A stretch of 64,000 bases of DNA from a virus (IMGVR_UViG_3300019360_000007:19088-83087); one strand, 5' to 3'; shown: positions 17,499 through 53,001, counted from the stretch's first letter. Translations and numbers: made by a program. The notes: generated by a model from the letters alone, not told the origin.

Positions 17499-17528
17499 GT
17501 CTGACCGTCCCACGTTGGGGAGGATGCG
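17499..17528 (-). promoter_or_regulatory. Conserved bulged-hairpin element, copy A
   Basis: CGCATCC-TCCC-CAACGT-GGGA-CGGTCAGAC; related copies at 31870 and 52954. Confidence 0.6.
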
Positions 17529-17613
17529 GACAGCTCGAAGTGGGATTCTTGCATTCCCATCTGATTCACGTTCACGTCTGCGTCTGTGACGCTTCCACCG
17601 ATTGCTCGGGTTG

Positions 17614-17633
17614 AAAAACCCCCTGGCGGGAGG
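17614..17633 (-). terminator. Possible weak intrinsic terminator after the tube gene
   Basis: CCTCC-CGCCA-GGGGG followed by TTTTT on the minus strand. Confidence 0.35.
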
Positions 17634-17676
17634 CGCTGGCTTGGGCAGGATCACGAGACCGTACCCGAGAACTGGA

Positions 17677-18468
17677 CTAGACCGTCACGAAGTCGGAGGC
17701 GGCTCTCTGATCGCCCACGTTGTAGCGCACCGAGCCGACCTGGCCGATGGTCGGGTCGTTGCCGGTGGCGAGGAACTCGCCGTACTCGGACGAGAAGTCG
17801 TGCACGTCGGAGATCGTGATGTCCCCGGTCTCCATGAGCATGCCAGTGTCGCGGCCCAGGTTCGTCAGAGACCACGAGTTGAACCAGCACGTCTCGTAGA
17901 GCGTGATGATGGCCGTGTGGCCGCGCAGGTCGCCGGGGAAGTTGTTCGGGTCGTTCGTGACCTGCGGGTAGGTGATCTCCTTGACGCCGCCGTCGAAGGT
18001 CCCGCCCCCGCCGTTGAACCCGACTCCGGCCTGTCCGGTGAGGTCGAAGTCCGCCAGCGTGGAGAAGACGAGCTGCTGCTCCACGTCGAACGGCCAGCGA
18101 TGGTGACGCAGGGAGCGCACCGGTCCGCTGATCCCGCCCGCGTAGCCAGTCGCCTGCCAGAGGTTCGAGAGGTAGAGGAGAGCCCGCTCGAAGCCGGCAG
18201 TCATCGCCTCGGTCACGCTCGGGACGAGCTCGGCGATCATGTCGCCGAAGCCGATGCCGCGGAGAGTGTCGATGGTGCGCGTCTCGTTCGGGGTGAAGCT
18301 CGACAGCACGCCCATCTGGAACAGGAGGTTCGCGTCGCTGCCGTAGGCCGGCGTCAAGACGCGGACCTTCTGGCTGACTGCCGTCCTCGTCTGCGGCGAC
18401 GTGCCGTAGTCGTAGATGTAGCTGGAGCCCTGAACTCCCTGCGCCGGGTTGAGGTCTTTGTTGGCCAT
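17677..18468 (-). CDS. Tail tube protein
   Basis: 263 aa, strongly biased codons, RBS GAGGAAGG; motifs LRGIG..IAELVP, RWPFDVEQ, TLYETCWFNSWS typical of myophage tubes; upstream of chaperones and tape measure. Confidence 0.8.
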   Translation of the reverse strand: MANKDLNPAQGVQGSSYIYDYGTSPQTRTAVSQKVRVLTPAYGSDANLLFQMGVLSSFTPNETRTIDTLRGIGFGDMIAELVPSVTEAMTAGFERALLYLSNLWQATGYAGGISGPVRSLRHHRWPFDVEQQLVFSTLADFDLTGQAGVGFNGGGGTFDGGVKEITYPQVTNDPNNFPGDLRGHTAIITLYETCWFNSWSLTNLGRDTGMLMETGDITISDVHDFSSEYGEFLATGNDPTIGQVGSVRYNVGDQRAASDFVTV

Positions 18469-18558
18469 GATCGCCTTCCTCTCGTCAGGCGGCCGACCCC
18501 GGGGGGCCGTTCACCGCGCAAAGTGGGGACGAGGGAGTCCCCTCCGAGAGAGAGGCGC

Positions 18559-19203
18559 CTATAGCCTGGCAAGCGAGACCAGCCAGCGGCGGGCAATGCG
18601 CGCGGCCACGCCCTCCGCGGCTCGCGGAGAGTCCCCAGGACCGGCACCTTCGCCCCTCGCCGCCCTCGCCAGCGGGTTGCCTTCCACGAGCCTCCAAGCC
18701 TCCAGGGCTCGCCTCATGGCCTTCCGCTTCTCGGGGTCCTTCTCGGACCGCAGACGACGTGCCAGCTCGGTCGGCGGCACGTTAATGAAGGTGGCCAGCG
18801 AATCAGAAGATCCACCTCTCGCGAGCGACGCCTCTCGCGCCGCGATCTGCCGCCGCAGGCCGGGATGCAGGATGTTCCAGTGGGCGCGGATCCAGGCGGC
18901 GTCCGCCCAGACACAGGCGTCGTGCTCGCCGCACAGCGTCGGGGTCCATCCCACGTTCTCGCTCGTGGCCATGACCAGACAGTACGCTCCGTCGCGCGCC
19001 ATCTCCAGGACATCGTGCGGAGGCAGGTGTCCCGTCTCCTCCGCGAACTCCCTCTCCGCCGCCGCGAGCGGGGACTCGCCGTTCTCCAGGTGTCCTCCTG
19101 GAACGGACCAGAGCCCGACATCGTCGGCATCAGGCCCCGGTGCCCGTCGAACGAGGAGAACGACCTTCCCGTCAGTGAGCCAGAGCCCTGCGCGCTCGAT
19201 CAT
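18559..19203 (-). CDS. NUDIX hydrolase with C-terminal RIARRW tail
   Basis: Nudix box GGHLENGESPLAAAEREFAEETG. Confidence 0.9.
   Translation of the reverse strand: MIERAGLWLTDGKVVLLVRRAPGPDADDVGLWSVPGGHLENGESPLAAAEREFAEETGHLPPHDVLEMARDGAYCLVMATSENVGWTPTLCGEHDACVWADAAWIRAHWNILHPGLRRQIAAREASLARGGSSDSLATFINVPPTELARRLRSEKDPEKRKAMRRALEAWRLVEGNPLARAARGEGAGPGDSPRAAEGVAARIARRWLVSLARL
18561..18577 (-). promoter_or_regulatory. Putative phage late promoter (CTCGCT-N7-CTAT)
   Basis: One of seven matches to (C/A)TCGNT-N7-YKAT upstream of gene starts. Confidence 0.55.
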
Positions 19204-19225
19204 GCGGCGCCCGTACGCCGTCGGC

Positions 19226-19552
19226 TCACCGGCGGCCGGCTGCCCTCGGCGGAGTGAAGCGGTACTTCTCGGGGTCGACCAGGCCGGACTCGTCGGGCTC
19301 CATGCCGACGCGCTCGTCCTCGATCCTGTCGGCGATGCGCACCAGGTCCGTGTAGACCTGTGGCCGGAGATTCAGCGCCCGGGCCACCAGCGCGAGCTGC
19401 TTGATCAGGGCGGCGAGGGCGACGTCCTCGAAGTGCTCCTCGGCGAGGAGGTCGCGGACGAGACCCGGCAGGGGACGCAGCGTCGAACGATAGTCGAGCG
19501 CGCGCTTGACCCTGCGCAGGAAAGTCCAGTCGTCGAGAATCTGCATGGCCAC
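19226..19552 (-). CDS. Hypothetical protein
   Basis: Fills the gap in the operon with host-like codon usage. Confidence 0.6.
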   Translation of the reverse strand: MAMQILDDWTFLRRVKRALDYRSTLRPLPGLVRDLLAEEHFEDVALAALIKQLALVARALNLRPQVYTDLVRIADRIEDERVGMEPDESGLVDPEKYRFTPPRAAGRR

Positions 19553-19557
19553 CTGAA

Positions 19558-19830
19558 TCAGATTCGATGCTTGGCGATGGCGGCGACCATCGCCTCTTCC
19601 ATGGCCTTCTCCGCCTCTTCTGCCGTTGCAGCACCGTTGTAGGCGGCCTCGGCAGCACGGTAGATCTTGGGAATGTCCATGATGTTGACCTGAACGCGCT
19701 GCCCGTGCTTGTAGTAGGTCTTCGAGATCAGCGCCTCGAGCTTCTTGCCCTTGAGCTTGGCCGTCGACTTGGCCCAGTGCTCGGACGCCTCGCGCAGCAG
19801 ACGACGTGCTTCTTGGATGTTCGGCTTCAT
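19558..19830 (-). CDS. Hypothetical protein (shares ARxLLREAS with upstream gene)
   Basis: Start overlaps the upstream stop (ATGA). Confidence 0.7.
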   Translation of the reverse strand: MKPNIQEARRLLREASEHWAKSTAKLKGKKLEALISKTYYKHGQRVQVNIMDIPKIYRAAEAAYNGAATAEEAEKAMEEAMVAAIAKHRI

Positions 19831-29400: not shown

Positions 29401-30887
29401 ATGCCGAACCCCCAGAACGCCTGGACCAAGTTCGGGTTGTTGGTCGGCAGGTCGATGCGGGTGTTCGAGACCGAGAGGAACACGTCCTGCCCGAGCGGCG
29501 TGTCGCGCCCGTTGCCCGTCGTCGGCTGCGCGGGGAGACGGAACTGCGTGCGGCTCTCCACGGCGGGAATCACCGTGTCGACGACGACGACCTCCGTCGG
29601 CGCCATGAACCAGCGGTTGTCGATCAGGAGGGCCGAGATCTGCGTGGGCCCGAAGGGCGGAGCCCCCGGAGTCGTGATCCCGGGCGAGATCAGGAAGGCG
29701 GCTCCCCAGACGATCAGGTCGTCCTTGAGAACGAAGTCCGCGCCCTCGATGAAGTCGTTGTTGCCGGGCACGATGCCGCAGCGGATGACCTCCGTGACGT
29801 TGATGTTCGCGAGGTAGTCGAACGTGTCCTGCCAGGTGTTGAAGAAGTATTGGATCGTGACGGTGTCGCCGACCGCCGGGGCGAAGGGCAGCGTCACGGC
29901 CCTGTTCTGGCCGTCGACCTCCGTCGGGATGACCTGGACCGAGTTGACGCGCACGGTCACCTTCGACGTGTCGGTCGTGGTGATGCCGCCGTTCGAGCCG
30001 TCGACGATAGGCCCGTTGAAGGTGAAGAACGTGCGGTTCCGACGCGTGTTCTGGTTCTGCGTGAAGCCGAGAACCGAGTTGGCCGTGCCGTTCCCGATCA
30101 GGAGACCGTTGTCGGCGACGAGGCGCACCGCCGTGAGGCCGAAGTTGTTGGTGTAGGTCGACGCCACCAGCGACGTGCCGGCCGCGGCCCCGTTGATCAG
30201 GGAGACCACCGTGGCGGCCGTGACGCTGCCGGTGGGGAACGTGGCGGTCACGACCTGCTGCGTAGTTGCCGACTGGTCGAAGTCCACCGTCACGAGGAAC
30301 TGGTTGTTGGAGGAGGTGAACTCGTAGGCGTTGCCGATGGCCCCGTCGAGGATCGCTCCTTGCGTGGACACCTGGTCGGACAGGTTGTCCGTGATCTGCG
30401 TGTCGGTCCGCTTGAAGAAGTAGGTGACCCGGACGTCGTCGCCGAAGTCGGGCGCCGTGCTGATCTCGATCACGCCGATGTCGGCGCGGGCCACGCTCAG
30501 GACCACGTCGGGGCGACCGTTGATCGTGACCAGGATCGAGCTGGGGTCCGTGGCCGTCTTGCCGGAGCCTGACCCGTCCGTGATCGGGTAGTTGCGGACC
30601 CGGATACGGCGGCGCTCACCGTTGAAGTCGCCGAGGATGACCTCGCCGGTCATCGTGATCTCGACGACCGCGCGACCGGTCTCGTCCTCCTGGGGGACCT
30701 GCTGGTCGACCGAGCTGCTCGATCCGCGGATGACCTCCAAGTCTCGCTGCTGGAGCAGCTCGTTGCCCGTCCCGATGAGCACCGGAATGCGGACGCCCGC
30801 GAGGACGCCGGAGACCGGCGAGTCGAACAGGGTTCGGGTATAGACGCCAGGTGGCGCGTAAATGGTCCCAGGAAAATCCGCGGGCAT
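23445..30887 (-). CDS. Giant tail sheath protein (2480 aa) with nested domain insertions
   Basis: N-terminal PPGVYT; C-terminal sheath domain (AAFLAFLNGA, RAERTGIIG, RVRQGLTT, YQPIFPLLYIVITFNL). Confidence 0.9.
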   Translation of the reverse strand: MPADFPGTIYAPPGVYTRTLFDSPVSGVLAGVRIPVLIGTGNELLQQRDLEVIRGSSSSVDQQVPQEDETGRAVVEITMTGEVILGDFNGERRRIRVRNYPITDGSGSGKTATDPSSILVTINGRPDVVLSVARADIGVIEISTAPDFGDDVRVTYFFKRTDTQITDNLSDQVSTQGAILDGAIGNAYEFTSSNNQFLVTVDFDQSATTQQVVTATFPTGSVTAATVVSLINGAAAGTSLVASTYTNNFGLTAVRLVADNGLLIGNGTANSVLGFTQNQNTRRNRTFFTFNGPIVDGSNGGITTTDTSKVTVRVNSVQVIPTEVDGQNRAVTLPFAPAVGDTVTIQYFFNTWQDTFDYLANINVTEVIRCGIVPGNNDFIEGADFVLKDDLIVWGAAFLISPGITTPGAPPFGPTQISALLIDNRWFMAPTEVVVVDTVIPAVESRTQFRLPAQPTTGNGRDTPLGQDVFLSVSNTRIDLPTNNPNLVQAFWGFGIEDALNRGAVSVTKVEGTIITLENPVPVGADVFATFWYNIMVDEEYTVQVETSGPSGIGTYFLFDKNGNPIYTPKFGSKGPALTGVTIEFPSGSELTPDVHFEGGTQGPVEETVTVQFADKDATIAKFTVPGAGPYFFVSGASDRARFTIDSSALAGGAAGIDLSAPHGIQGLGFYASLLGEEIQYTDDSGKTTYDILSGINDNVSFTVDGVVVTVTVPSQTAVNADAYVEAINAEAKLVANNPFLDGTTRFLGSTVITAGRYDKLVFNYTGVTNGPTGPVTATIAPGTYTSPTTMAAAVDSALQTAIGALPASFSGMDITCTANADGGMRFTFSATPTDLGTFATGTVTSALAVLGDTVTIDGVTLTGDLAQISGAQNFDTGQARATLMPMGVQPGDTFTIDAGGGPVLITAAGAQTPGGLNFNEGTRATGTITVAGPIPGDTVTVDGQVFLGVSGAPAANEFDVGTRASGTATLMGVQYGDTITIDTSVVGGGPVTLTASNTLTPGGLDFNVGTAATGTVGFSGVRVASAAPYPVVAADTLTLNGNVLTPVDVARTSGADDFFAGVRALSTLTVVTTALPSTGVLYGDTITIAGIPLTADNVTTPGGLNFDAGTQATATITVTASPSSATITIDTGAIAGGPYVLVPAGGPRTPGANDYDNTLGTTAAIAADIAAALNDPLNSFAAFSSAAVGPGPNDVTVTWTVPGMAANAVANLSSDGTVTISATFAGGVGDEITTATAIVAAILDPLNGLTSTVQAHNTGGTSATVDLRAITPGTGGNSISTVSTAPARLTFAGATLAGGLGTNTSARDDAIAAVNDVANSFAVDVTATSSGATTMVLTAVTPGAVGNTITLSTTAAGRFVLSGATLTGGVGDDISAATSLVAAIADAGNGLVGGVVATNAGGTSNVVTIMSFTPGTVGNGILLMESTGATRITLSAGTLLGGVGDNTTVATSLGASITASLPALVFTGVVAAVVTITAVTPGNAGNTIVLASSSATRLIRSGPTLAGGVGTNLTVASSIVAAINDLGNGLAAAVSADNAGGTSTTVTVWSDTPGVIGNTYTIASSTGVRLPVSGATFVGGATTVQVASSLVAAISDALNGLVGIVTADNSSGTSAVVDITAAVPGPTGNFITLASSTAIRLPVSGATLTGGSGLGGGVWEFLDGATVAEDFAIICGLSTDALPSQEQTKIVDGDIARRFTVSGTSGRLIYDRIIMRNRVLPGSGSLEPQSQVAQTSLITQGTNAVTETGLQPKAVGLAGIEATLRPASLFGEVGFKDGQVPAGTFADARDGQPRVRFYGSGGVNPQNNVWKVNIDGTAFTVVFKDSVGAAIPAAGQADVPLGPITFPNTVLKQIQDAAVGAGLPASVVAQEGAGIRLVSGIVTTNSAITLGNGNANNVLGFSEGATAARSTVDPELVASALMMHHSSTINGAILDYQMPDLTWFAAQALAGVERDSANNEFLFIESQANNIVGLGSSSNILFETATTADWLLTGTGLGVTSGQGAAGESGFQGFFVTSSDPVDGSGSANTSCFNSGVGQDGMISQSYRDTVTGLVFTILPRTGGADYPTGAGASFTFQVRKLVTTDANIPVNSISGLELIVANTEGSSIPQGDTAIVETFDRGGQEPAVGDSYFITYNYAKTAADFETMLFTSQRAVERNYGDTTPDNQVSLAAFLAFLNGAVVLGIKQVPKIPGSNQASTQSYSDALNDLRGSLPGGAVLDTITPMRGDDIDLFLQLSNHCDIQSSIRFRAERTGIIGVASGTQPTEVGGIAQQIENTRIRLVYPDIVTLTIQDALGNFKQFLVDGTYLAAAMAGNRASPNIDVATPWTRARIVGFDELARKLDAVEQNQVAVQGVTVMEQRGTVIRVRQGLTTDPTNILTKLPTVITIADEVQRAARRDLDRFIGIKFLPGVLSEIEGQLATTMKALKNAEIIAAFTGIQARTTNDPTVVEVEAFYQPIFPLLYIVITFNLRSNLGG
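25933..28373 (-). repeat. Seven N-half repeats followed by seven C-half repeats (nested domain array)
   Basis: 7x A(T/S)xT..GDT(V/I)TI..(N/D)FxxG, then 7x AxxxxAAI..PG..GN.I..SGATLxGG. Confidence 0.85.
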
Positions 30888-30888
30888 G

Positions 30889-31617
30889 TCAGCTTCCTTT
30901 CAGTGCGGCTCGGAAGGCGTCGAGGGAGATCCGCGTGAAGTGGAATCCGCGACACGGAGTTCCACGACGAATCGACTTGGCGACGGCATCGAAGGACAGG
31001 CCAAGGGCCTTGGCTGCTTCGGTCGCCGACGAAAAAACGGAACCGTCGGAGCGTCGGACGGGATTCGCGTTGCCTTCACGAATGCGACGCTTGTGTTCCT
31101 CGGTGAAGGCCTGTCCCGTATGGGCGGCAGACATCTTGGCGCGCGTCTCTTCCGATGGCACACGACCCGAATGGCTCGTGGACATTCGCGCCCTGCTCTC
31201 CGCGGAATGCCTTCGTCCCTTCCAGAAATCACCGCGCCCATTCTCCAAGTTGGCGAGCTGTCTCGCGGAGACCCCGCGAGCCTTGGCCGAGGTCGACATC
31301 CTCTTGCGCGTCTCCTCGCTCGCGACAACTCCGTCTCCGCCCTTGGTCAGGTTGTAACCATGCGCGCGCTCGGCCGAACGGTAGAGGGCGATATAGTGCC
31401 GCTCCCGTTCGTTGGCCTCGGCGAGGGTCGCGATTCCCTTCTCAAGCACTTCCCAGGCCATGGCGGGTCCGTACTTGCGAAGAGCCGCGGAGAAATGGCG
31501 ACTCCTCGTGCGAGCCAGGTAGAGGTGCTCGATCTTGCGCTGGTCGAGACTGCGCCGCGTGATCCCGACGTAGACCTTCCCGCTGGGCGACGTGACCCTA
31601 TAGACCACGTACGTCAC
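30889..31617 (-). CDS. GIY-YIG homing endonuclease with NUMOD3 repeats and NUMOD1-like HTH
   Basis: VVYRVTSPSGKVYVGIT, GYNLTKGG, (H/P)SEETRxxMS repeats, VFSSATEAAKALG; GTG 31617 after AAGGAG; its 3' end supplies the sheath RBS. Confidence 0.9.
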   Translation of the reverse strand: MTYVVYRVTSPSGKVYVGITRRSLDQRKIEHLYLARTRSRHFSAALRKYGPAMAWEVLEKGIATLAEANERERHYIALYRSAERAHGYNLTKGGDGVVASEETRKRMSTSAKARGVSARQLANLENGRGDFWKGRRHSAESRARMSTSHSGRVPSEETRAKMSAAHTGQAFTEEHKRRIREGNANPVRRSDGSVFSSATEAAKALGLSFDAVAKSIRRGTPCRGFHFTRISLDAFRAALKGS

Positions 31618-31869
31618 GTCCGCAGGACGCTCCTTCCCGCTCGCGCTCGACTCGGAGGAGGAGCACGTCGCGTCGGGCCACGGGGTCGCCGTGGCGAGTT
31701 CGGTGGAGGTCTGGAGCATCGAGGTCGGCTGTTCGCTCGGGATCACTCCCGTCTGTCGGGCGCACTTCTCCTGCGAGCGCGTGACGCCCTGGGTGCAGTC
31801 GCGGATCGCGCTCGGTAGAGCGCCTTGGTTCACGTCTCCGTGCCCGTCTCCGTCGGTCTGTCGGTTCAC

Positions 31870-31899
31870 GTCTAGCCGTCCCCTCGCGGGGAGGAAGCG
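31870..31899 (-). promoter_or_regulatory. Conserved bulged-hairpin element, copy B
   Basis: CGCTTCC-TCCCC-GCGA-GGGGA-CGGCTAGAC (GNRA loop). Confidence 0.6.
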
Positions 31900-31997
31900 T
31901 TCTGCGGGCCTGCTAGGCAGGCTGCGTTCACATCTCGTCTGTCGGTCTGGTCACGTCTGGGTCCTCCCTGCGGGAGGCCGGGGTTGCGACTGTCGCC

Positions 31998-32459
31998 TCA
32001 GCGAGCAGCCTCCTCGGGAGCGGAGCCGGAGCGCCCCTCCCGCCAAGCCTTGAAACGGTGCATGACCTCCTGGTTGACCAGTCGGGCCTTCTTGGCGGCG
32101 CGGCGCTCGGTCTCGGTCATGACGAAGTACTCGCCGCTGTCGAGCCGACTGAGGTGGTCCCCGGTCGTATCGTTCGCGGAGATCACGCGACGCTTGTAGT
32201 CCTGGCGTCGCTGGAACTCCCTGAGGTTCGCCTCCGCGCTGCGGCCGATGACCACGTCGACGTCGTGATCCACCGAGCTGGCTCCCGTGTTCTGGGGACG
32301 GGGCGCATCGGGCACGTGGGCGAACTTGAAGCTCGGCGTGGGGATGCGCCTGTCGGCACCCTCGCCGCAACGCTTGCACGGGATCGTGTCCCTGACCTTC
32401 CCGGCCGGCTGCATTGACCCGAACCGCAGACCGCAGCTCGGGCACTGGTAATCGAACAT
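31998..32459 (-). CDS. FmdB-family zinc-ribbon protein
   Basis: MFDYQCPSCGLRF...IPCKRCG. Confidence 0.8.
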   Translation of the reverse strand: MFDYQCPSCGLRFGSMQPAGKVRDTIPCKRCGEGADRRIPTPSFKFAHVPDAPRPQNTGASSVDHDVDVVIGRSAEANLREFQRRQDYKRRVISANDTTGDHLSRLDSGEYFVMTETERRAAKKARLVNQEVMHRFKAWREGRSGSAPEEAAR

Positions 32460-32492
32460 CGGCAAGGTCGCTCCGTCTACTAGGTCGCCCCT

Positions 32493-32509
32493 ATAGACAC
32501 GAAAACGAG
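32493..32509 (-). promoter_or_regulatory. Putative late promoter (CTCGTT-N7-CTAT)
   Basis: Motif match in an intergenic region. Confidence 0.55.
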
Positions 32510-32512
32510 CGC

Positions 32513-33772
32513 CTAGCGCAGCATCTCGCCCGTCCCGTAGACCCCCGAGCGGCCCAGCTTGCCGACGAAGAACGGGTCCCACGGAGCCCGGAGACCGAGG
32601 GACGCCAGGGTGCGGAAGTTCGTCTGGATCTTCGCGATCTCCTCGTCGGAGAGCCCGGCGATCTGCTCGATGAACGGGGCGATGAGGGGGGCCTGGCCCT
32701 GCGGCACGGGCTCGCCCCCGGCCTGCTCCACCCCGCGGATCGTGATGCCGAGGGGGACGTGGATGCTCCAGTCGGTCTGGAGCTGCAGGCTGAAGCTGGC
32801 GTTGTAGAACCAGTCGTCAGCGACCTCGTCGTACTGCTCCTCCGTCTCGCCGCCCATGTTGACCGAGGCGATCTCGATCCCCATGCTGGAGAGCCGTGGT
32901 CGCGCGGTCGCCCAGAGGTACAGAGCGGTCTGGTCGAGGATCTCGCGCTGAGACAGAGGGTCGCGGGCGATGACGTCGAAGTCCAGGGTCAGGTCCCAGC
33001 GACCCCCGAACTCAAGTGCCGAGATGGTGCGCTTGTCCTGGACCACGACGGCCAAGCGGTCCCCGGCCGTGATGCGCCTCCCGAACGCAAGGACCGTCCC
33101 GGGAACGGGTTCCCGTAGAGCTCGGTCCTCGCGAACCTTCCACGGGCCCGTCGTCTCGCCCGGGCAACGGTAGTCGGCGGACAGGAACTCCTCGTCGGCC
33201 AGCTCGTCGATCAGGTCGATCTCGCCCGTGTCCGGGTCGGCCGTGTAGTTGGGGCCCTCGTAGAGCCGGAGGTTCCCGGGCATCCGGTAGAGGCGCAGCG
33301 TGCCGGAGAGGAACTTCCCCTTCTGGAGCTGGTACTGGGTGTCGTTGATCTTGAGGACCGTCTCGTCGATCACGTCGAGGAGCGGGTCCACGAAGAACTC
33401 CTGGTCGGTCGGCGAGCCATTCGCGTCGCAGAAGTCGAGGAAGTAGATGCCGGCCGCCGAGGGGAAGAACCCGCCGTTGTTCTGGATGGCGACGAAGTCC
33501 TCGCGCACCCACTCGACGGAGAGGTTCGGGTACCCCTCGACGTGGGCGAGGTACACGTAGCTCATCACGTGGCCCTGGAAGTTGTCGGCGGCGAGCGCGA
33601 CCTGGTTGCCGGCAGAGTTCTTGATCACGATGCCGAACTGCGGGCGCTCGCGGAAGCTGTACTTCCCCTGGATGTGCTGGACGATGTCCTTGTACTTCGG
33701 GTGGTACGACCAGTATCGGCGAAGCTCCTCGATGAACTTCCGATGCACCTGAGTTGTGAGGAAATAGTACAT
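32513..33772 (-). CDS. Putative tail terminator/completion protein
   Basis: Position between neck genes and sheath; WDLTLDFDVIARD..WFYNASFSLQLQTDW is beta-sandwich-like; AGGAG upstream. Confidence 0.5.
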   Translation of the reverse strand: MYYFLTTQVHRKFIEELRRYWSYHPKYKDIVQHIQGKYSFRERPQFGIVIKNSAGNQVALAADNFQGHVMSYVYLAHVEGYPNLSVEWVREDFVAIQNNGGFFPSAAGIYFLDFCDANGSPTDQEFFVDPLLDVIDETVLKINDTQYQLQKGKFLSGTLRLYRMPGNLRLYEGPNYTADPDTGEIDLIDELADEEFLSADYRCPGETTGPWKVREDRALREPVPGTVLAFGRRITAGDRLAVVVQDKRTISALEFGGRWDLTLDFDVIARDPLSQREILDQTALYLWATARPRLSSMGIEIASVNMGGETEEQYDEVADDWFYNASFSLQLQTDWSIHVPLGITIRGVEQAGGEPVPQGQAPLIAPFIEQIAGLSDEEIAKIQTNFRTLASLGLRAPWDPFFVGKLGRSGVYGTGEMLR

Positions 33773-40026: not shown

Positions 40027-40027
40027 G

Positions 40028-40393: not shown

Positions 40394-40446
40394 CGCGATC
40401 CTCGGATTCTTTCACGTCACGGAGCTGCGGCCACCCTAGGTGGCCG

Positions 40447-40463
40447 ATAGGGAGTCCACCGAG
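40447..40463 (-). promoter_or_regulatory. Putative late promoter (CTCGGT-N7-CTAT)
   Basis: Motif match in an intergenic region. Confidence 0.55.
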
Positions 40464-40474
40464 GGCCGCACCGG

Positions 40475-41368: not shown

Positions 41369-41396
41369 CAGAAGATCTCCATCACGATGAGGCGCC
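41245..41396. repeat. Exact 75-bp tandem duplication across a gene junction
   Basis: 41245-41319 equals 41320-41394, with CC microhomology. Confidence 0.95.
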
Positions 41397-42054: not shown

Positions 42055-42057
42055 CGG

Positions 42058-42276
42058 CTAGGTCTTCGTGACAGGCACGACCTCCACCGAGTCGACGGTC
42101 ACCTCCCACCCGGTCGAGACCGGGTCGCCCCCGAGCTCGCGCCCGAGGAGGCTCTGGAGGCGATTGCGAGCGTGACGCCGGAGCATTCCCACGATGCTCT
42201 CCTTGTCCTTCCCGGACAGAGCTTCCTCAGGCTTCGTCGGAATCGCGTCGAACGTCAGCGTGTACTTGACCTTCAT
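42058..42276 (-). CDS. Hypothetical protein
   Basis: 72-aa ORF in the operon. Confidence 0.65.
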   Translation of the reverse strand: MKVKYTLTFDAIPTKPEEALSGKDKESIVGMLRRHARNRLQSLLGRELGGDPVSTGWEVTVDSVEVVPVTKT

Positions 42277-42283
42277 GCTGCAC

Positions 42284-43897: not shown

Positions 43898-43909
43898 TGG
43901 TTTTGCTCC

Positions 43910-46638: not shown

Positions 46639-46679
46639 GGCGCGAGCCGCCGGCGTACGGCTCCTGTCGAGCCGCACCT

Positions 46680-46696
46680 ATCGAGCGATTATCGAG
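46680..46696 (-). promoter_or_regulatory. Putative late promoter (CTCGAT-N7-CGAT)
   Basis: Motif match upstream of 46638. Confidence 0.5.
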
Positions 46697-46966
46697 ATCC
46701 GACGACTCTGCGCTGGGCGGACGACGCGTACAGGAACTCGTCCTCGACTTCGCGAGGAGGAGCGAATCCTCCTCCCGCGTCCCACGCCTCGACCAGCTCG
46801 ACGTCGGTCGGCTCTCGCCGGTCTGCTCGACCCTCCCCGCGACACGCTGGGCACCTCGCGAGAGAGAGAGCAGCGTGGACTCCAGCCATCGTGGGCAGCC
46901 GGCGGGCACGACCATCACGGTGCCAGACCCGCGGCACGTGTGGCACGGCGCAGGGACCGTGGCCAT
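46689..46966 (-). pseudogene. DnaJ-type zinc-finger gene frameshifted at a (CT)5 tract
   Basis: CHTCRGSG and CPACRGEG lie in different frames; removing one CT at 46861-46870 joins them into a 91-aa ORF. Confidence 0.65.
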
Positions 46967-47030
46967 CTCATGACGGAGGTGGAGATAGCCAGACAAGCGG
47001 CGCGACAGGTTCGATCCGGGTACAACGAGC

Positions 47031-47297
47031 ATGGTGGAGGACGCGGACAACCCCTGCCTGACGTGCGGTGCGTGCTGCGGACCCGTGCTACAGCTGCGCG
47101 GCGTGGTCCGCAGCGACGGAGAGCCGTGCGTCACCCACCGTGGCCGCGTCATGTGCTCGGGGCTGCGCGGGAACGTAGGAGTCCACGTGTCGTGCTCGAT
47201 CTACGAGCATCGCCCAGAGGCGTGCCAGATGTTCCAGCCCGGCTCAGCGGCGTGCAACGACGCGCGGAAGATGCACGGCCTCGGTTCGCTAACCTGA
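47031..47297 (+). CDS. YkgJ-family CxxCxxCC cysteine-cluster protein
   Basis: NPCLTCGACC...CSIYEHRPEACQMF. Confidence 0.85.
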   Translation: MVEDADNPCLTCGACCGPVLQLRGVVRSDGEPCVTHRGRVMCSGLRGNVGVHVSCSIYEHRPEACQMFQPGSAACNDARKMHGLGSLT

Positions 47298-47519
47298 GCT
47301 GTCGTCGGTCTCGTCGTCCTTTCCCATGTGCCGACCATTGGGGAGGAGCGACGACGGCAAGACACCTCCGCTCCGTGTCTCCTCATAGCGGGCGCAGCGA
47401 GCGAACTCCGACGAACAGTAGGCCCCCAGCCAGTACCCGAGGGCCTCTCGCTCTCTCAGGATGGGAAACAGCGAGCACCTGCCTCGGACGGGACAGAGAC
47501 CGGGATCCTCGTCGCTCAT
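47289..47519 (-). CDS. Small Cys-rich hypothetical protein
   Basis: CP..CSLF..YC..CARY..LLPNG pattern. Confidence 0.65.
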   Translation of the reverse strand: MSDEDPGLCPVRGRCSLFPILREREALGYWLGAYCSSEFARCARYEETRSGGVLPSSLLPNGRHMGKDDETDDSSG

Positions 47520-47523
47520 GGCC

Positions 47524-47712
47524 TCATCTGCGGGTGCCGAAGGCGAGCTTGGAGTTGAGCCACCTGCGTCGCTGTTCGCAGGATCCGCACGTCCTCATGC
47601 CGACGGCGCCCGTCACCTTCCTGACGACGTCACCGGCTCCGATCTGCCGGATCGGGAGCGGGACGACGACCTTGGATGGCTGGCCGGGCTTCGACTTGTG
47701 GATGCAGGCCAC
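47524..47712 (-). CDS. Small phage protein (GAGDVV..CGSCEQRRRWLN)
   Basis: Resembles a common small phage family, GxGD..CxxC.RR..LN. Confidence 0.65.
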   Translation of the reverse strand: MACIHKSKPGQPSKVVVPLPIRQIGAGDVVRKVTGAVGMRTCGSCEQRRRWLNSKLAFGTRR

Positions 47713-47781
47713 GATGTTCCTGTAGAGAACTACGCCATAACCGAGCCACCGAGAAGGCCGCCGACCGCATCCGCAGAACCG

Positions 47782-48147
47782 TCACTGCAACGTCTCAGTT
47801 CCCCCCTCGACCTTCCCGAACCGCTCCAAAGCGAAGATCCTGCGACGATAGTAAAGGGCCATGGGTGCCGCCGTGCGGTAATGCGGATTAGGAAGCAGAA
47901 GGTCGGGTTCGATCCGCGAGATCTCGCTCAGACGCCAGCCACGTTCGCGAAGTTGCTTTTTTGTGAAGTGTCCGTTGCACCGATTGGGACACAAGTGGGC
48001 CGTGTAGCCTCCTCGTCTCGCCCACTCCTCTCCACACTCCAAACATCTGTAAACCTTCGCGTCACGCACAATCTGTTGCAGACGCAGCTCCCTATCATCA
48101 GGAACCTTCTGTGGCCCGAAAGGGATGTTCTTGCGGTCCCCGTCCAT
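47782..48147 (-). CDS. Zinc-ribbon hypothetical protein
   Basis: ATG 48147 after GGGAGAGG; YRCLECG..CPNRC. Confidence 0.55.
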   Translation of the reverse strand: MDGDRKNIPFGPQKVPDDRELRLQQIVRDAKVYRCLECGEEWARRGGYTAHLCPNRCNGHFTKKQLRERGWRLSEISRIEPDLLLPNPHYRTAAPMALYYRRRIFALERFGKVEGGTETLQ

Positions 48148-48203
48148 CGTCGTGTGCCTCTCCCGAAATGCGGAGTTCGTCGGATGCCCGGACAGCGAGC
48201 TGT

Positions 48204-50522
48204 CTACCCCACCTGGACCTCGCCAAGGAAGGCCGCCAACCTGGTCCGCACGGCCTCGCGATCCCCATTCACCTCGGACTCCCAAATGACCAGGCACTCA
48301 AGCCCAACCTCGGCGTACGCGGCCACCAGCTCGGACTCGTGCTCAAAAGGCGCCTTCCCCGTGAACATCCGCGAGTGCCAAAAGTCCCCGAACGCCTCGA
48401 CGACCTTGGTGACTCCCTTCCTCGGTTTCTTCGGATCGGGTCCGGGCAAGATGAAGTCCGGGTTCTTGAAGTGACCGAGCTTCGGAAGCCAACGCCAGAA
48501 TTTCCGGTCACCCGTGTACCGCAGCCGGGACTCCAGCGAGGCCACCCGACGCTCAAGCCCGTTCGGACCGAACTTCGTGGACTCGCCCATCTGATAGAGG
48601 AAGTAGGACGCGTAGTCCCTGTCTTGGAGCGGATGCGTGATCCCGTAACGCTCAAGGAGGTCCTCTTCGGAAGCAGCAGGAGGATCGGGATCTGAGAACA
48701 TCTTACCAACCTTGGAGAGGCAGGTGCGGATGGTCTTCTCTTTGATTTGCGGGGCTTCTTGGACAGTCGGAACGCCATACCTCTCCAAGCAGGTGGCAAC
48801 CACCTTCGCCATGATCTCCGGGCTCTGAAGCGGGCTGTCAACGCCATAGCGTTCTTGGCAGGTCTCTCTGCGCCTTTCCAGGAACTCGGCGAGCTGGAGC
48901 GGGTGCGTGACCCCGTACTTGGCCACGAATCGCTCGACCTGCTGTTCCCAGAACCCCTCGACCTGCGCGTAGTAGTCCACGCCGTACTTGGCCTGCATCC
49001 CCTCGATCACGCGACGCTTGCCTTCCTCAGAAGCGAAGAAGTGCGAGCCATAGTTCGCCTCCATCGTTTCGAGTTGCTTGCGCCTCACGTCAGGAACCAT
49101 CGCCGTCCACGAGACACCGTAACATTCAAGGTTGGTCTGGCGCTGCCTCTCCACGACCTCGGGCGAACACGACGGAGCAGGACCCCCGTAACGCTCCTCG
49201 TTCGTTGCCACGATCTTCTCCCGAATCTCGGGGGCAGCCAGAGACTCCTCGTGCCCGTAACGCTCAAGATTCGTCGCCCTGGTGCGAGCCCGAATCTCAG
49301 GCACCTGTTGCGGGTTCTCGGCCCCGTAACGCTCGCGCATGGTGTCTCGAATCTTCTCCTGCACCTCGGGCTGCGCAAACGGGTTGTCCTCGCCGCGGAG
49401 TACAGGTCGTTTCCCTTCCAAGGACGCCTGCACATCGTCGAACAGATTCGACTCTCGGGCAAACACACTTTCGGCTCCGTAACGCTCAAGGTTCGTGGCC
49501 GATGCCTTGGCCCGAACCTCGTCCGACTGCATCGGGTTCTCCACGCCGAACCTGTCCAGATTCGTTCGCAACCTTCTGGCTCTGGCAACCGCGTCTGCGT
49601 CCCTCGTCTGCCAGACCACACAGATTCCCTGATGCCGCTTCATCTGCGTCAAGCTCGTGCTCTCATGCCCACACAAGCACGGCTCCGGGCCTTGCGTATC
49701 AGGCCATCCCTCGCAGATGGCCTTGTGACGACTCGTGACCTTCGTGAATGCCTCGTCGCAGTGAGGGCAGATCTCGTAGGCACCTGACGCGATCAGATCT
49801 TCACGATGCAACCGTTCTCGTTCGGCACGCTTCCTCGCCAACTCCAAGTACCACGCCGGAGAGTGGAGGAAAGAGGATGCCCCGTGGCGCGCAGCGTTTG
49901 TCTGCTCCATGCGTCTCCTGATTCTTGGCGCCTGTTGCGGATTCTCGACCCCGTGACGCTCAAGATTCGTCGCACGGATCTTGTCCTTGATCCCCTCGGA
50001 CGCGAACACGTTCACTACTCCGTATCGCTCAAGGTTCGTCTCAGCACGACGTTGCTTCACCCCCTCAGCCTGGAGGTGATGCTCGACTCCGTACTTCTCT
50101 CGAGAAGCCTGGCGTGTCCTCTCCTTGACTTCCTCGCTCTGACCAATGTTGTCCACTCCATACTTGGCCCGCGTGGTCTCCACACGCTGGGCCTCGGAGC
50201 CCTTGGCCACCACCGGAGCCCCAGGGAACTTGGCCTCGTAGTGGCTCCGAGTCAGGCCGTTATGGAGGCGCTTGAGGTGGTCCGCTAGACGCTTCACGCG
50301 GACCTCTGTGCCTCCCGCGTGGCAGATCCGGCATGACACGTAGTCCTGGCCCTCGACCTTCCCAGGAGCCCACAGGCCGCGCTGGAAGTGCCGGTCGAAG
50401 TCGAACTGCGAGGGGGGAATCCCGATCACTGTATCCCACGCAGAACAACCGTTCGTGTGCTTCGGAATAGCTTTCGGTGACGAGAGGATCTTCTGGCAAG
50501 CGGGGCAACAGAGTTCGGGCAT
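48204..50522 (-). CDS. Homing endonuclease: Zn fingers, about 17 NLERYG-type repeats, C-terminal Vsr-like nuclease
   Basis: TNLERYGVEN-type repeats; NPDFIL..VVEAFGDFWH..LVIWESE; start ATG 50522 (or 50534). Confidence 0.8.
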   Translation of the reverse strand: MPELCCPACQKILSSPKAIPKHTNGCSAWDTVIGIPPSQFDFDRHFQRGLWAPGKVEGQDYVSCRICHAGGTEVRVKRLADHLKRLHNGLTRSHYEAKFPGAPVVAKGSEAQRVETTRAKYGVDNIGQSEEVKERTRQASREKYGVEHHLQAEGVKQRRAETNLERYGVVNVFASEGIKDKIRATNLERHGVENPQQAPRIRRRMEQTNAARHGASSFLHSPAWYLELARKRAERERLHREDLIASGAYEICPHCDEAFTKVTSRHKAICEGWPDTQGPEPCLCGHESTSLTQMKRHQGICVVWQTRDADAVARARRLRTNLDRFGVENPMQSDEVRAKASATNLERYGAESVFARESNLFDDVQASLEGKRPVLRGEDNPFAQPEVQEKIRDTMRERYGAENPQQVPEIRARTRATNLERYGHEESLAAPEIREKIVATNEERYGGPAPSCSPEVVERQRQTNLECYGVSWTAMVPDVRRKQLETMEANYGSHFFASEEGKRRVIEGMQAKYGVDYYAQVEGFWEQQVERFVAKYGVTHPLQLAEFLERRRETCQERYGVDSPLQSPEIMAKVVATCLERYGVPTVQEAPQIKEKTIRTCLSKVGKMFSDPDPPAASEEDLLERYGITHPLQDRDYASYFLYQMGESTKFGPNGLERRVASLESRLRYTGDRKFWRWLPKLGHFKNPDFILPGPDPKKPRKGVTKVVEAFGDFWHSRMFTGKAPFEHESELVAAYAEVGLECLVIWESEVNGDREAVRTRLAAFLGEVQVG

Positions 50523-50523
50523 C

Positions 50524-50540
50524 CGTGCTAGCATAGCACG
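50524..50540 (-). promoter_or_regulatory. Hairpin containing an extended -10 (TGcTATGCT) just upstream of the endonuclease ATG
   Basis: CGTGCTA-TGC-TAGCACG-G-ATG. Confidence 0.55.
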
Positions 50541-50581
50541 ACAGAAAACTGAAGGAAGTCACTGCGATGTGAGAAACCTCA

Positions 50582-51475
50582 CTAAACGAAACTCCTAGGT
50601 GAAAGAATCCCCCGGCCGACCGCGGGTCCAAAGGAGGACCTCACCCCGAAACCAAACTTCGGCTGCTGCAGGCCACGGATGAACTTGACGGTCCTCGACT
50701 TCGCCTCGGTCGCCTTGTCGAGCTGGCCCTCGGCGTTGCTCTTGAGAGACTCGTACTTGCTCGACTTCTCCAAGCTCAGCGAGATCCCGCCGATGGAGTA
50801 GTCGAACTCGTCGTGTACCCAGTTGACGCTGAGGGCGAACAGAGCATGCACCGCGGCTGCCCACAGGATGAACGTCCTCCACACAGGCTTTCGGGCGCAC
50901 AGGTCGTTGAGCGTCCTGATGCCCTCCGTCTCGGGGGGGAAGGCGTTGAACCAGTCCAGTCCCATCTGCAGATAGCAGAGCAGCTCGTAGTCCTCCCAGA
51001 TGTACCCGAACACGCGGTTGTACTTCTTAACCACGCCCTCCTGCTCGGGCGGGCGGAAGTGGTAGTTGCGATCCGGAGAGTTGCTGACGACGGCCTTGGA
51101 ACGATGGAGCACGAAGTTGTGCCAGTCCTCCGCCGTCAGGTCGTACATGTGACGCCGGTCTTCGATCCGCCGCACGACGAGAATACAGGGGCTTCCCACG
51201 GTTTCCTTGAAGACACCGAGGACGGCCTGTCCAGGGTGTAGCTTCTCCATCTCAACTTTCTCCGTGGGCGACACGAAGACGCGATGGCCTCCCGTGAGGA
51301 CCATGGACCCATGCTCGGTGGTTGCCTCCCAGATCGACTCCGAGATCACCTCGGCCCGGTGGGCGGCGAGAATCCGTTTCCAGCGGAGAGCCCCCTCGGG
51401 AGAGACCGAACGCACGCGGAGTTCTCCAGCTTGAAACGCGGAGTGCAGCTTGGCTTGGGTCTCAGCAGAGAGCAT
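50582..51475 (-). CDS. Split neck/head-tail adaptor gene, C-part: IntC (132 aa) plus C-extein
   Basis: RBS GGGAGG; intein block B LTGGH, block F MYDLT..HNF, block G VVSN/S at 51080. Confidence 0.85.
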   Translation of the reverse strand: MLSAETQAKLHSAFQAGELRVRSVSPEGALRWKRILAAHRAEVISESIWEATTEHGSMVLTGGHRVFVSPTEKVEMEKLHPGQAVLGVFKETVGSPCILVVRRIEDRRHMYDLTAEDWHNFVLHRSKAVVSNSPDRNYHFRPPEQEGVVKKYNRVFGYIWEDYELLCYLQMGLDWFNAFPPETEGIRTLNDLCARKPVWRTFILWAAAVHALFALSVNWVHDEFDYSIGGISLSLEKSSKYESLKSNAEGQLDKATEAKSRTVKFIRGLQQPKFGFGVRSSFGPAVGRGILSPRSFV

Positions 51476-51605
51476 CCCGTAGCCCTCCCCTCTCGGTCCA
51501 GACGTGAAAGGACCAACGGGGGCGCCCCTTCTTGGAGAACACCTCCCAAGAGATGTCGTGCTTGCGCAGGAAAGGCACGAGCGCGCAGTGGGGGTCACTG
51601 AACAT
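51462..51605 (-). CDS. 47-aa ORF between the intein halves (possible endonuclease remnant)
   Basis: MFSDPHCALVPFLRKHDISWEVFSKKGRPRWSFHVWTERGGLRDALC; GGAGG upstream; overlaps both halves. Confidence 0.4.
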   Translation of the reverse strand: MFSDPHCALVPFLRKHDISWEVFSKKGRPRWSFHVWTERGGLRDALC

Positions 51606-52104
51606 CCTTCAGAGCCTCCCACAAGTCGTCCATACGTACAATCATCCGTTCGCCGTCCACGTCCAATTCAATGGTTTCCTCGGCTCCAACACAGTTGTCC
51701 CTCAACATCACGCGGAGCTTGTCCACGAGCCCGGCTTCGCAGCTCGAGAGCAGGGGCTGTCCGTCCGTACACGCCGCCGGGTCGCTGACCCCGAACTCCT
51801 GCACGACTTCCTGGAACTCGTCCATGAGCGTCTTGCGGAACCTCCACCTGATCCGGTACTCGCCCGCGGAGGCGCCGGGAGGCACGAGGAGCGCCGCGTA
51901 GTACTCGCCGATGGACGGATTGACGGGCACGCGATCCATGGGTCCGATGAGGACCTCGACGCCCGGAGGACCCATGCTCTGGTCCACGAAGAAGATGGAG
52001 TAGAAGATCTCAGCGGCGTTCATCGGAACGCCGAGCTCGTCGACCAGGAAGATCTTGAGGTCGTTGCGGCCTAACTCGGTCCCAGGGGGGAAGCAGACGG
52101 CCAT
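51595..52104 (-). CDS. Split neck/head-tail adaptor gene, N-part: N-extein plus IntN (32 aa)
   Basis: ...LRVMLRDN/CVGAEETIEL..VRMDDLW (intein block A), then a stop. Confidence 0.85.
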   Translation of the reverse strand: MAVCFPPGTELGRNDLKIFLVDELGVPMNAAEIFYSIFFVDQSMGPPGVEVLIGPMDRVPVNPSIGEYYAALLVPPGASAGEYRIRWRFRKTLMDEFQEVVQEFGVSDPAACTDGQPLLSSCEAGLVDKLRVMLRDNCVGAEETIELDVDGERMIVRMDDLWEALKDVQ

Positions 52105-52108
52105 CGGC

Positions 52109-52672
52109 TCACAGCCTCACGTCTCCGAGGTCGAAGTCCTGGTCGTCGGCGAGGGGAACCTCCTCGTCCGCGGCGGGTGCACCGAGGTTGCGTATGTCGT
52201 AGGGTGGATCATCGTCCACTTCCTCGGACTCCACTTCCTCGTCGGCGTTGATCACCTCGACCTCGACTCCGGCGTCGTTCTTGACCTTGACCCCCACCTC
52301 GCTCTTGAGCTTCACGGCATCGTCGTCCGCACCGCCGGTGAGCGTCTCCCTGGTCCTCCGTCCCCACTCGTCCAGGACGGCCAAGAGATCGTTGAGATAC
52401 TGGGAGTCGCCCTGGTCGATGGACTTGTAGCTGATCAGGCGCGTGTAGACCTGGTTCTTCGCGCGGAACGCCTGCTCGATGGCAGCCTTCGTGGAGTCGC
52501 ACAGCTCGTCCACGGTCGAGGGACTCGAGACGCCCTCCTCGATCTGCGGAAGGATCTCTCGCTCCACGGCCTCCCTCGCGTACGAGGACACGAGCAGGGC
52601 CTCCTTCGCCCGCTCTTCCGCGACGTGGCGCTGGACGATGTCGTTCCCCGATATCAGCTCGTCCAGACGCAA
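52109..52672 (-). CDS. Acidic-tailed hypothetical protein
   Basis: TTG start after GGGGAG. Confidence 0.7.
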   Translation of the reverse strand: MRLDELISGNDIVQRHVAEERAKEALLVSSYAREAVEREILPQIEEGVSSPSTVDELCDSTKAAIEQAFRAKNQVYTRLISYKSIDQGDSQYLNDLLAVLDEWGRRTRETLTGGADDDAVKLKSEVGVKVKNDAGVEVEVINADEEVESEEVDDDPPYDIRNLGAPAADEEVPLADDQDFDLGDVRL

Positions 52673-52673
52673 C

Positions 52674-52931
52674 CTAGTCTCCCCTGCCCTCGTGCGTGAG
52701 GGCCTTCATGACCTTGATCTCGTCGGCATAGGTCAGCGCCGGCACCTTGCTTGAGCGGTTGTAGTACTGGTCGCGCAGGTCCCTGACGCCGTCTCCATCG
52801 TTCTCCTCGAAGACGAAGAACACCCTGCCGCCCTCCCTCTGCGTCCCGAGGAGCTTCATCCCGGCGACTTTGAGGTAGGCGGCGTAGTACATGTCGGAGG
52901 TCCGGTACCCGCTCAGCTTCTCGTCTGTCAT
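52674..52931 (-). CDS. Small DUF5659-like protein
   Basis: YRTSDMYYAAYL..G..L....GRVFFVFE (family recalled from memory). Confidence 0.75.
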   Translation of the reverse strand: MTDEKLSGYRTSDMYYAAYLKVAGMKLLGTQREGGRVFFVFEENDGDGVRDLRDQYYNRSSKVPALTYADEIKVMKALTHEGRGD

Positions 52932-52953
52932 CGTCACATCTTCCTTCTGTGAA

Positions 52954-53001
52954 GTCTGACCGTCCCCGTGCGGGGAGGAAGGTGGGCGCCTCGGCGCCCA
53001 C
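52954..53001 (-). promoter_or_regulatory. 9-bp GC hairpin followed by conserved bulged-hairpin element, copy C
   Basis: GTGGGCGCC-GA-GGCGCCCAC then CTTCC-TCCCC-GCAC-GGGGA-CGGTCAGAC. Confidence 0.6.

Follow-up and report, generated by a model that had tools for sequence, protein, structure and literature searches.

Does a short bulged hairpin that recurs in front of three separate genes of one viral genome act as a shared signal of gene control, and, if it does, by which mechanism? The hairpin lies in a stretch of 64,000 nucleotides (nt) of viral DNA (the window), which corresponds to bases 19088-83087 of the 83,087-base-pair (bp) virus record IMGVR_UViG_3300019360_000007, a record with a CheckV completeness of 16%. 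An earlier note, made from the sequence of this window, had listed three non-coding copies of the hairpin, with a conserved stem and a variable loop, and proposed that they form an RNA regulatory system. The window has a GC content of ~65%, and all its gene-like frames with high GC at the third codon position are on the minus strand; the sense strand of the motif is this same strand, i.e., the gene strand. No tRNA was found in the window, and there is no near match to it among GenBank phages. A window protein of 508 amino acids (aa) matches LR745208.1 (485 kb), the Tunturiibacter phage Tunturi_5 (309 kb) and Bacillus phage G, and since these matches are to very large phages, we take the source of the window to be a very large phage as well.

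Three copies of a bulged hairpin

The three copies, which we call core modules A, B and C, are as follows, with coordinates counted from the first letter of the window:

17499-17526, minus strand: core module A, CAUCC-UCCC-CAACGU-GGGA-C-GG-UCAGAC (hairpin 17505-17523, tail UCAGAC 17499-17504)
31870-31897, minus strand: core module B, CUUCC-UCCCC-GCGA-GGGGA-C-GG-CUAGAC (hairpin 31876-31894, tail CUAGAC 31870-31875)
52954-52980, minus strand: core module C, CUUCC-UCCCC-GCAC-GGGGA-C-GG-UCAGAC (hairpin 52960-52978, tail UCAGAC 52954-52959)

All three lie where the earlier note had placed them, and all are intergenic and in gene orientation. The motif folds into a stem of 4-5 bp that stands on a 2-bp CC/GG clamp and is capped by a variable loop; a single pyrimidine bulges out on the 3' side, and a YYAGAC tail follows. 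In copy A, these parts are a CC clamp, a UCCC stem, a 6-nt loop (or a fifth, mismatched C/U pair) and a bulged C, so that the description of a conserved stem with a variable loop holds overall, with the exception of the innermost stem pair of copy A, which is a C/U mismatch. Core C is 13 nt upstream of the AAGGAAG Shine-Dalgarno (SD) sequence of a small gene for a DUF5659 protein.

A search for the 13-nt core GTCTRRCCGTCCC with at most one mismatch gave 3 matches where 0.80 are expected, and because 6 of 100 shuffles also reach 3 matches, this pattern is weak by itself. When all the parts are asked for (tail, clamp, stem, loop of 3-10 nt, stem, GGA), exactly three places in the whole 83,087-bp record match, and none on the opposite strand. 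In a looser structural scan, the clamp could be any two pairs, the stem had to have 4 bp or more, and a 1-nt bulge on the 3' side and a (YY)AGAC tail were required. The sense strand gave 8 matches at 7 places, the antisense strand gave none, and the four intergenic matches are the three copies and one more hairpin, at 31960-31979.

The sequences that the earlier note had seen to be shared by the flanks of A and B fared unequally. All three occurrences of AGACGTGAAC in the record are inside the A and B gaps, as are both occurrences of AGATG[GT]GAA[TC]GCA (as the 13-mer AGATGKGAAYGCA); ACGGGCAC, with 13 copies in the record, is unspecific. The richness in CAGAC was borne out, in that the B gap is the AGAC-densest of 4142 windows of 260 nt (9 against a mean of 1.08); its 258 nt hold 8 AGAC, compared with 4.19 per kb overall, and none in the antisense direction.

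The comparison with Rfam 15 gave no match in the window at the gathering score. The A gap is without a match at E values up to 10, and near the B gap we found only two plus-strand matches, far below threshold, at its upstream edge (15.7 bits against a threshold of 37, and 13.2 against 80). Our search of the literature, over titles and the beginnings of abstracts, found no description of such a motif, of stem-loops at jumbo-phage tail-sheath genes or of cis-regulatory RNA in huge phages. The element is very likely an undescribed gene-control signal, of an RNA motif family that is new and of a general kind that is known.

Conservation and base pairing in relatives

The relatives that we analyzed are IMG/VR and metagenome loci found through DNA patterns and through flanking proteins, and they are given here by our own labels, which begin with G or L. 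A covariance model (R1) made from seven copies of the 14-nt form of the hairpin was searched in five whole records. In the window's own record (G000), it scores B at 49.3, C at 45.8 and A at 43.7 bits; the three best scores are 29.2, 28.2 and 25.0 bits in G006, and 27.0, 26.8 and 24.9 bits in G004, a record of 618,736 bp that is rated 92% complete. Exactly three matches stand out in each of these three records, on a single strand and at syntenic places. G005 has A at 23.3, B at 31.4 and C at 16.7 bits, and G002, whose record is without a counterpart of the C region, has A and B only. The copies in relatives precede the same three genes, i.e., a 429-aa gene (A), a giant sheath-like gene (B) and the DUF5659 gene (C), and core A has orthologues in G002, G004, G005, G006, L018 and L019. 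The weaker R1 matches that we examined (L091, L092, L093, L095 and L100) are inside open reading frames (ORFs) with high third-position GC.

A pattern search returned 60 stretches, 18 of which were judged by their flanks to be members of the family; 12 form an AT-rich group, and 30, which are coding-like or single, were dropped. The AT-rich IMG/VR group (L020, L029, L030 and nine more) carries a 22-mer 6 nt after TATAAT with no open frame downstream on that strand, and it was rejected as a chance look-alike. A separate set of stretches contained 4 relatives among 8, with L007-L010 set aside as chance matches, and another contained 8 A leaders among 9 (5 of them distinct), together with an unrelated coding match (L108).

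When 30 copies (29 distinct) are aligned to the model, 98.5% of the cells pair, and 4 of the 7 pairs are changed on both sides (6 cells). None of 500 shuffles reaches these values, and a slid partner gives 0-1 such pairs. The compensatory changes include C-G to G-C at the top pair (copy A of G002), C-G to U-A at the third pair (copy B of G006, and L116), C-G to U-A at the second pair (copy C of G004) and U-A to C-G at the first pair (L177). Throughout this set, the bulge is C or U, the CC/GG clamp is without variation and the hairpin length is 12-14 nt. The loops seen are GCAC, GCGA, CAACGU, CUCG, UUCG, UCC, CCU and UUUCU, often UUCG, CUCG or GCGA, and G-U pairs are present in the stems of distant members (L125, L146 and L159). 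In addition, RNAalifold, when given 8 B leaders in a plain MAFFT alignment, predicts this bulged hairpin together with the first hairpin of these leaders, the latter with several compensatory pairs. Compensatory changes of this kind are the general mark of a base-paired RNA, as the earlier note had supposed the element to be, and the element is under selection for pairing on the sense strand.

Over the wider clade, we looked for a strict pattern (CC, a stem of 4 bp or more, a 3-12-nt loop, stem, a C/T bulge, GG) in the 135 nt that precede each of 48 distinct DUF5659 loci. The hairpin is found at 17 of the 48 loci, a few of these matches being further upstream and possibly other hairpins. The same pattern matches 56 of 951 windows elsewhere in these loci and 4 of 48 when the opposite strand is read, and shuffles average 1.66 matches (maximum 7). 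With a more general scan, 29 of 75 B- and C-type leaders contain the hairpin, where shuffled leaders average 6.68 (maximum 14) and the reverse complement gives 6. Distant stems differ in sequence and in length (4-9 bp), and the clamp, the bulged pyrimidine and a YCA-R-A-Y tail are kept. In one lineage the clamp is changed: the sheath leaders of L183, L184 and L186 each have two hairpins with the clamp GC...U-GC and with GCGA or UUCG loops; the tail CAGATAAGAAC is identical in L184 and L186 (records of 372 kb and 497 kb), and the tail in L183 is of a CAAAT type. The form in L184 and L186 is, as we read it, a lineage-specific version of the module. Tunturi_5 and LR745208.1, in which the N-terminus of the sheath protein is homologous, have no such hairpin in the sheath leader and no DUF5659 homologue. 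Three further IMG/VR records of the clade carry DUF5659.

Leader architecture and possible roles of the hairpin

Tentatively, and with a confidence that stops a little short of even, we favor the reading that the element would be a cis-acting RNA docking site for one trans-acting RNA-binding factor. We infer the binding of a protein, its effect and the identity of the factor from the manner in which the element is conserved, because the sequence-specific base (clamp, bulge and tail) is kept while the upper stem and the loop drift, and this at three fixed leaders. The factor, probably phage-encoded, would read the clamp, the bulge and the tail, which in the longer leaders continues as a run of A(G/A)AY units, and it would set the translation, perhaps also the mRNA stability, of three virion-module units (DUF5659, giant sheath-like and 429-aa) together. 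We favor a shared translational operator because the site in the C leader abuts the ribosome landing zone; in the C-type leaders that we read by eye, 1-22 nt separate the end of the hairpin from the SD sequence, which places it inside this zone. The leaders are as follows:

17411-17676, minus strand: A leader, between a 263-aa ORF and the 429-aa ORF
31740-31997, minus strand: B leader, from the stop of a zinc-ribbon (Zn-ribbon) ORF to about the end of homology with the relatives' sheath leaders
31949-31979, minus strand: second bulged hairpin of the B leader, GG-CCUCCC-GCA-GGGAGG-A-CC (31960-31979), then CAGACGUGACC, with a tail that begins CAGAC
52938-53004, minus strand: C leader, with a GC hairpin GUGGGCGCC-GA-GGCGCCCAC (52982-53001), the core module and the SD sequence

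The A leader consists of a hairpin with a T run (17614-17632, of which a terminator scan flags 17619-17632), an invariant 20-nt box (17594-17613), a GCGUC-ACA-GACGC hairpin (17580-17592; GCGUC-NNN-GACGC in relatives), AGACGUGAAC (17570-17579) and the core module. A long-range helix is predicted between 17567-17582 and 17459-17475, with an exchange of C-G for U-A at one pair in 3 of 7 sequences, and an invariant extended hairpin (about 17404-17448) contains the SD sequence and the ATG of the 429-aa ORF. Over 302 columns and 7 relatives, the mean column identity of this leader is 80%, compared with 43-54% amino acid identity for the 429-aa protein behind it. The 20-nt box contains CGGTGGA, a 7-mer complementary to the 5' arm (TCCACCG) of the SD/ATG hairpin, and in L018 an A to G change in this complementarity would keep a G-U pair. 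In the B leader there are two units, each made of a bulged hairpin and four A(G/A)AY repeats (31932-31958 and 31834-31873), with spacings of 10, 8 and 5 nt and of 14, 10 and 12 nt. This leader also has a GCGC hairpin, a variable hairpin (31908-31922) that has another sequence in every lineage, and a predicted long-range closing helix (GGUCGC/GCGAC). The stems of its second bulged hairpin covary in the B leaders of L173, L174, L177, L178, L179 and L180. There are four A(G/A)AY units in the A leader and two in the C leader. The terminator-like hairpins that the earlier note had placed upstream of A and C were found in part, in that the hairpin of A has a T run and the GC hairpin of C has none.

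The known systems that the element resembles most are phage operator hairpins (MS2/PP7, T4 RegA or gene 32) and nut/put sites, but it departs from the defining features of each that we compared. The coat-protein operators of the RNA phages MS2 and PP7 have a bulged purine, a conserved loop and a hairpin that includes the start codon of the gene under control. The likeness here is that of a small hairpin with a single bulged base in a leader and, for the C-type site, nearness to the ribosome-binding site; unlike those operators, the bulge here is a 3'-side pyrimidine (C or U) beside a 2-bp clamp, the loop is free to vary, the tail is conserved and the start codon is outside the hairpin, 22-33 or at least 85 nt downstream. 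Autogenous translational operators such as those of T4 gene 32 and RegA repeat a signal over several messages and thereby place a whole set of genes under a single factor, and here, too, one signal is shared by several leaders. TRAP sites in Bacillus trp leaders have 9-11 (G/U)AG triplets spaced 2-3 nt apart. The sense-strand runs of a short purine-rich unit beside the leader hairpins are similar to these, and would suggest a multimeric RNA-binding protein, but the unit here is A(G/A)AY, with four per run (4+4 in the B leader) and an irregular spacing of 5-14 nt, and no TRAP-like gene was seen.

Several observations weigh against the docking-site reading. The distance from the core to the main start codon is 22-33 nt in C-type leaders and about 85 to >200 nt in A and B, and the A and B cores are too far from the main start for simple steric repression. 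The stability z-scores of the 46-nt cores are -0.19, -1.26 and +0.44, which is not exceptional, and because the three cores are not unusually stable, the case rests on conservation and not on energy. The alignment of 30 copies was fitted to the model and so favors pairing; in addition, the stem is nearly invariant within the close clade, which leaves little covariation at most pairs, and the compensatory cells are few. Only the 17 of 48 DUF5659 leaders pass the strict scan, and some low-GC lineages (L124) have a classical terminator at the DUF5659 leader instead. The trans-acting factor itself is putative.

Two window proteins are candidates for this factor. The earlier note had speculated that the DUF5659 protein binds the hairpin and regulates its own gene, and what points to it is co-occurrence: the hairpin stands before its gene in the lineages read by eye, the protein is very conserved, and protein and hairpin are both absent from Tunturi_5 and LR745208.1. 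Against it, these two phages are the most distant relatives, so that co-occurrence is confounded with relatedness, and the protein is mildly acidic, with an isoelectric point (pI) of 5.8. The other candidate, by its position, is the Zn-ribbon protein, which is basic (pI 9.8) and whose gene lies directly upstream of the B leader. In a more specific version of the docking-site reading, which we hold to be somewhat unlikely, the hairpin with its A(G/A)AY tail would act as the RNA address code by which huge phages mark a dedicated post-transcriptional regulon, in which one small phage protein, either DUF5659 or the Zn-ribbon protein, docks on three leaders, couples the sheath gene, the operon of tail genes that follow the tube and its own gene, and so times or proportions the assembly of a very long contractile tail. 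If the three sites were indeed read by a single factor, they would offer a compact case of stoichiometry control in the assembly of virions. How huge phages (hundreds of kb, uncultured) control their genes is almost unexplored, and an RNA signal at three places in a block of tail genes gives a concrete handle on it: the hairpin can be used as bait for the regulator and as a marker of expression units of giant tail genes in metagenomic contigs, and it points to a function for DUF5659, which is among the best-conserved small proteins of this phage group.

Other explanations have to be weighed against a docking site, and the most substantial of them, although we consider it unlikely, is a signal for RNA processing or stability. 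All copies are intercistronic and lie directly after highly conserved upstream genes, with a further hairpin just upstream of each, and single-stranded, A-rich RNA beside a stem, such as the tail, is the usual setting of an RNase E-type site. An endoribonuclease might cut the single-stranded A/C-rich tail, so that the remaining 3' hairpin protects the upstream message and sets the levels of neighboring cistrons, and the plain terminator at the same place in low-GC relatives would suggest such a boundary of expression level. A protective hairpin, however, needs no invariant clamp, bulged pyrimidine or conserved tail, and these stems are short (6-7 bp) and not unusually stable. The earlier note had left open whether the element is a nut/boxB-like antitermination site, a processing site or an operator. 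Of this, a conserved, strand-specific, base-paired RNA signal stands (covariation, tetraloops, G-U pairs and synteny), but the analogy with boxB fails on one defining feature, since lambda boxB has a conserved GNRA-like pentaloop that is read by the N protein, whereas here the loop differs among copies and relatives, and it is the base of the stem, the bulge and the tail that are kept. Processive antitermination of a nut- or put-like kind, by which the nascent hairpin, alone or with a factor, would modify RNA polymerase for read-through of terminators, is quite improbable. It would explain why the three copies head long same-strand gene runs (about 21 kb, 14 kb and >36 kb) and why A follows a conserved hairpin with a T run; the leaders are C/A-rich and G-poor between hairpins, like the rut sites around lambda boxB, and, as at lambda nut and HK022 put, a short hairpin is conserved between paralogous sites in unstructured surroundings. 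A nut site lies, with boxA, between a promoter and the terminators that are overridden, whereas our copies are downstream of the nearest terminator-like hairpins. No sigma-70-like promoter was found in the gaps, and no boxA (which was not searched as a pattern), N-like protein or upstream promoter was found; terminator-like sites in 40 kb are not enriched over shuffles (12 against 8.5, and 6 against 7.8), and other intergenic gaps of the window are without the element. The cores are not intrinsic terminators either, as their tail is YYAGAC or YCAAAU with no U run, and the terminator scan flags none of the three.

A switch that works without a protein is, in our estimate, very unlikely. The A and B hairpins would on this account belong to a larger fold with a long-range closing helix that alternates with a stem hiding the ribosome-binding site, in response to a ligand, to temperature or to co-transcriptional folding; the closing helix and the SD/start-hiding stem of the A leader do recall riboswitch platforms, the helix has its exchange of C-G for U-A, the B leader has its predicted closing helix, and the 20-nt box together with the SD/ATG hairpin could form an ON/OFF switch. 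The C copy, by contrast, keeps the core alone in a short leader without the larger fold, no known aptamer or Rfam riboswitch was matched, and the helices are almost invariant, which makes covariation uninformative. We assign a very small probability to a site that acts at the level of DNA, i.e., a promoter that a phage-specific polymerase or sigma factor would use, or an operator to which a DNA-binding protein would bind. High conservation over three loci and relatives is like that of phage promoters, and the gaps lack a sigma-70-type promoter, but compensatory stem changes, RNA tetraloops, G-U pairs and a half-spacing of 12-14 nt (more in distant members) misfit duplex DNA; there are 3 copies only in a 618-kb genome, and no polymerase-like protein was found, a 3645-aa ORF of this phage having no match in the PDB, Pfam or PHROG. 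An N4-like hairpin promoter with a giant virion polymerase was rejected, given a 3645-aa ORF without polymerase similarity, the structural-gene block, the UUCG-type loops and the G-U pairs, as was a two-part promoter spanning the hairpin, given its varying spacing. Scarcely probable at all is a device based on an upstream ORF, in which the 3' arm would be SD-like, the CCUCC arm would hide it and translation of the short ORF would open a downstream stem. An AUG does follow the clamp by 4-5 nt in nine A-type leaders (G004, G005, G006, L018, L019, L104, L106, L107 and L109) and in 4 of the 5 B leaders read outside the window's own lineage, and several A leaders (L104, L107, L109, L019, G004 and G006) hold a 15-codon frame, M-K-M-K-M-G...K-F-A-L-stop, in which UGA becomes UAG in L107 and L109. 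There is no start codon at this spot in the window copies, in G001/G002 or in C-type leaders, and other lineages read AUU, AUA or ACG there; the frames differ in G002, L018, G005 and L106, the 15-codon frame is conserved neither in these nor in the window, the B copies of the window and of G002 differ by a 1-nt indel, and GGGGACGG, as an SD, is poor next to the GGAGG or AAGGAG sites that the phage itself uses. As for a mimic of a CRISPR (clustered regularly interspaced short palindromic repeats) repeat, an RNA anti-CRISPR would resemble the element in having a hairpin plus a handle, would be similar to a repeat of the host or of a phage, and would occur as a solitary unit without ties to particular genes. 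What we find is no array, and the 618-kb genome has only 3 copies, each in a leader whose syntenic place is fixed.

Genes next to the leaders

The genes that flank the three leaders are as follows:

16133-17410, minus strand: 429-aa ORF behind the A leader, which serves it; searches of Pfam, PHROG and the PDB gave no match
23445-30887, minus strand: 2480-aa gene, served by the B leader in relatives, whose N-terminus matches a Tunturi_5 gene annotated as tail sheath
30889-31650, minus strand: GIY-YIG/NUMOD3 homing endonuclease (PHROG 314, E 2.9e-29), with a domain that begins near 31611 and a start that is not fixed
31998-32582, minus strand: Zn-ribbon ORF (194 aa, pI 9.8), directly upstream of the B leader, with PF09723 at 33.7 bits, just below the 34.4 cut-off
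52674-52937, minus strand: DUF5659 gene (85-87 aa; PF18903, E 4.6e-9), immediately 3' of module C

A search of Pfam and PHROGs with 25 flanking proteins returned only DUF5659, GIY-YIG/NUMOD3, the near-threshold Zn ribbon, NUDIX, Baseplate_J, an HNH-like match and a few PHROG families without a function. The earlier note had named the gene blocks that follow the three copies. The chaperone/tape-measure block after A was not borne out, the next gene being the 429-aa ORF; the 263-aa ORF upstream of A has no Pfam or PHROG match. The small DUF5659-like gene after C was recovered as such, with a 228-aa ORF on the other side of the leader. The DUF5659 protein has 121 homologous clusters, at 59-92% identity and on contigs of up to 618 kb, and is far better conserved than its neighbors. 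A PDB sequence search with it gave nothing meaningful, the ESM Atlas returned only viral clusters with scores of 0.80 or below, and a literature search found no paper on DUF5659.

The endonuclease-sheath block after B is also present, as the GIY-YIG homing endonuclease followed by the 2480-aa sheath-like gene, with the stop of the former abutting the ATG of the latter. In L171, L173, L174, L178, L179 and L180, the endonuclease is absent here, and the B leader runs directly into the ATG of the sheath-like gene. Because these six relatives lack it between leader and sheath-like gene, the endonuclease was, to judge from these loci, inserted in the lineage to which the window, G001 and G002 belong. 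Its longest frame starts at a GTG right after core B, and the 1-nt indel in G002 argues that the stretch after core B is non-coding. The 2480-aa protein starts with MPADFPGTIYAPPGVY, and its first 330 residues are 34% identical to the "tail sheath" of Tunturi_5 (E 4e-18); searches of Pfam, of PHROG and, with the whole protein, an N-terminal profile and the C-terminal 400 aa, of the PDB gave no match. The place of the Zn-ribbon ORF upstream of the B leader is kept in relatives.

The tail-gene block also contains two giant ORFs, of 3645 aa (G000:C1:9174-20111, in the window up to 1024) and of 1826 aa (4064-9544, minus strand), neither with a Pfam, PHROG or PDB sequence match. A NUDIX hydrolase (18559-19203, minus strand) is encoded among the tail genes, and directly after the sheath-like gene there is a 566-aa ORF (21617-23317, minus strand) with a weak match to an HNH-endonuclease PHROG.

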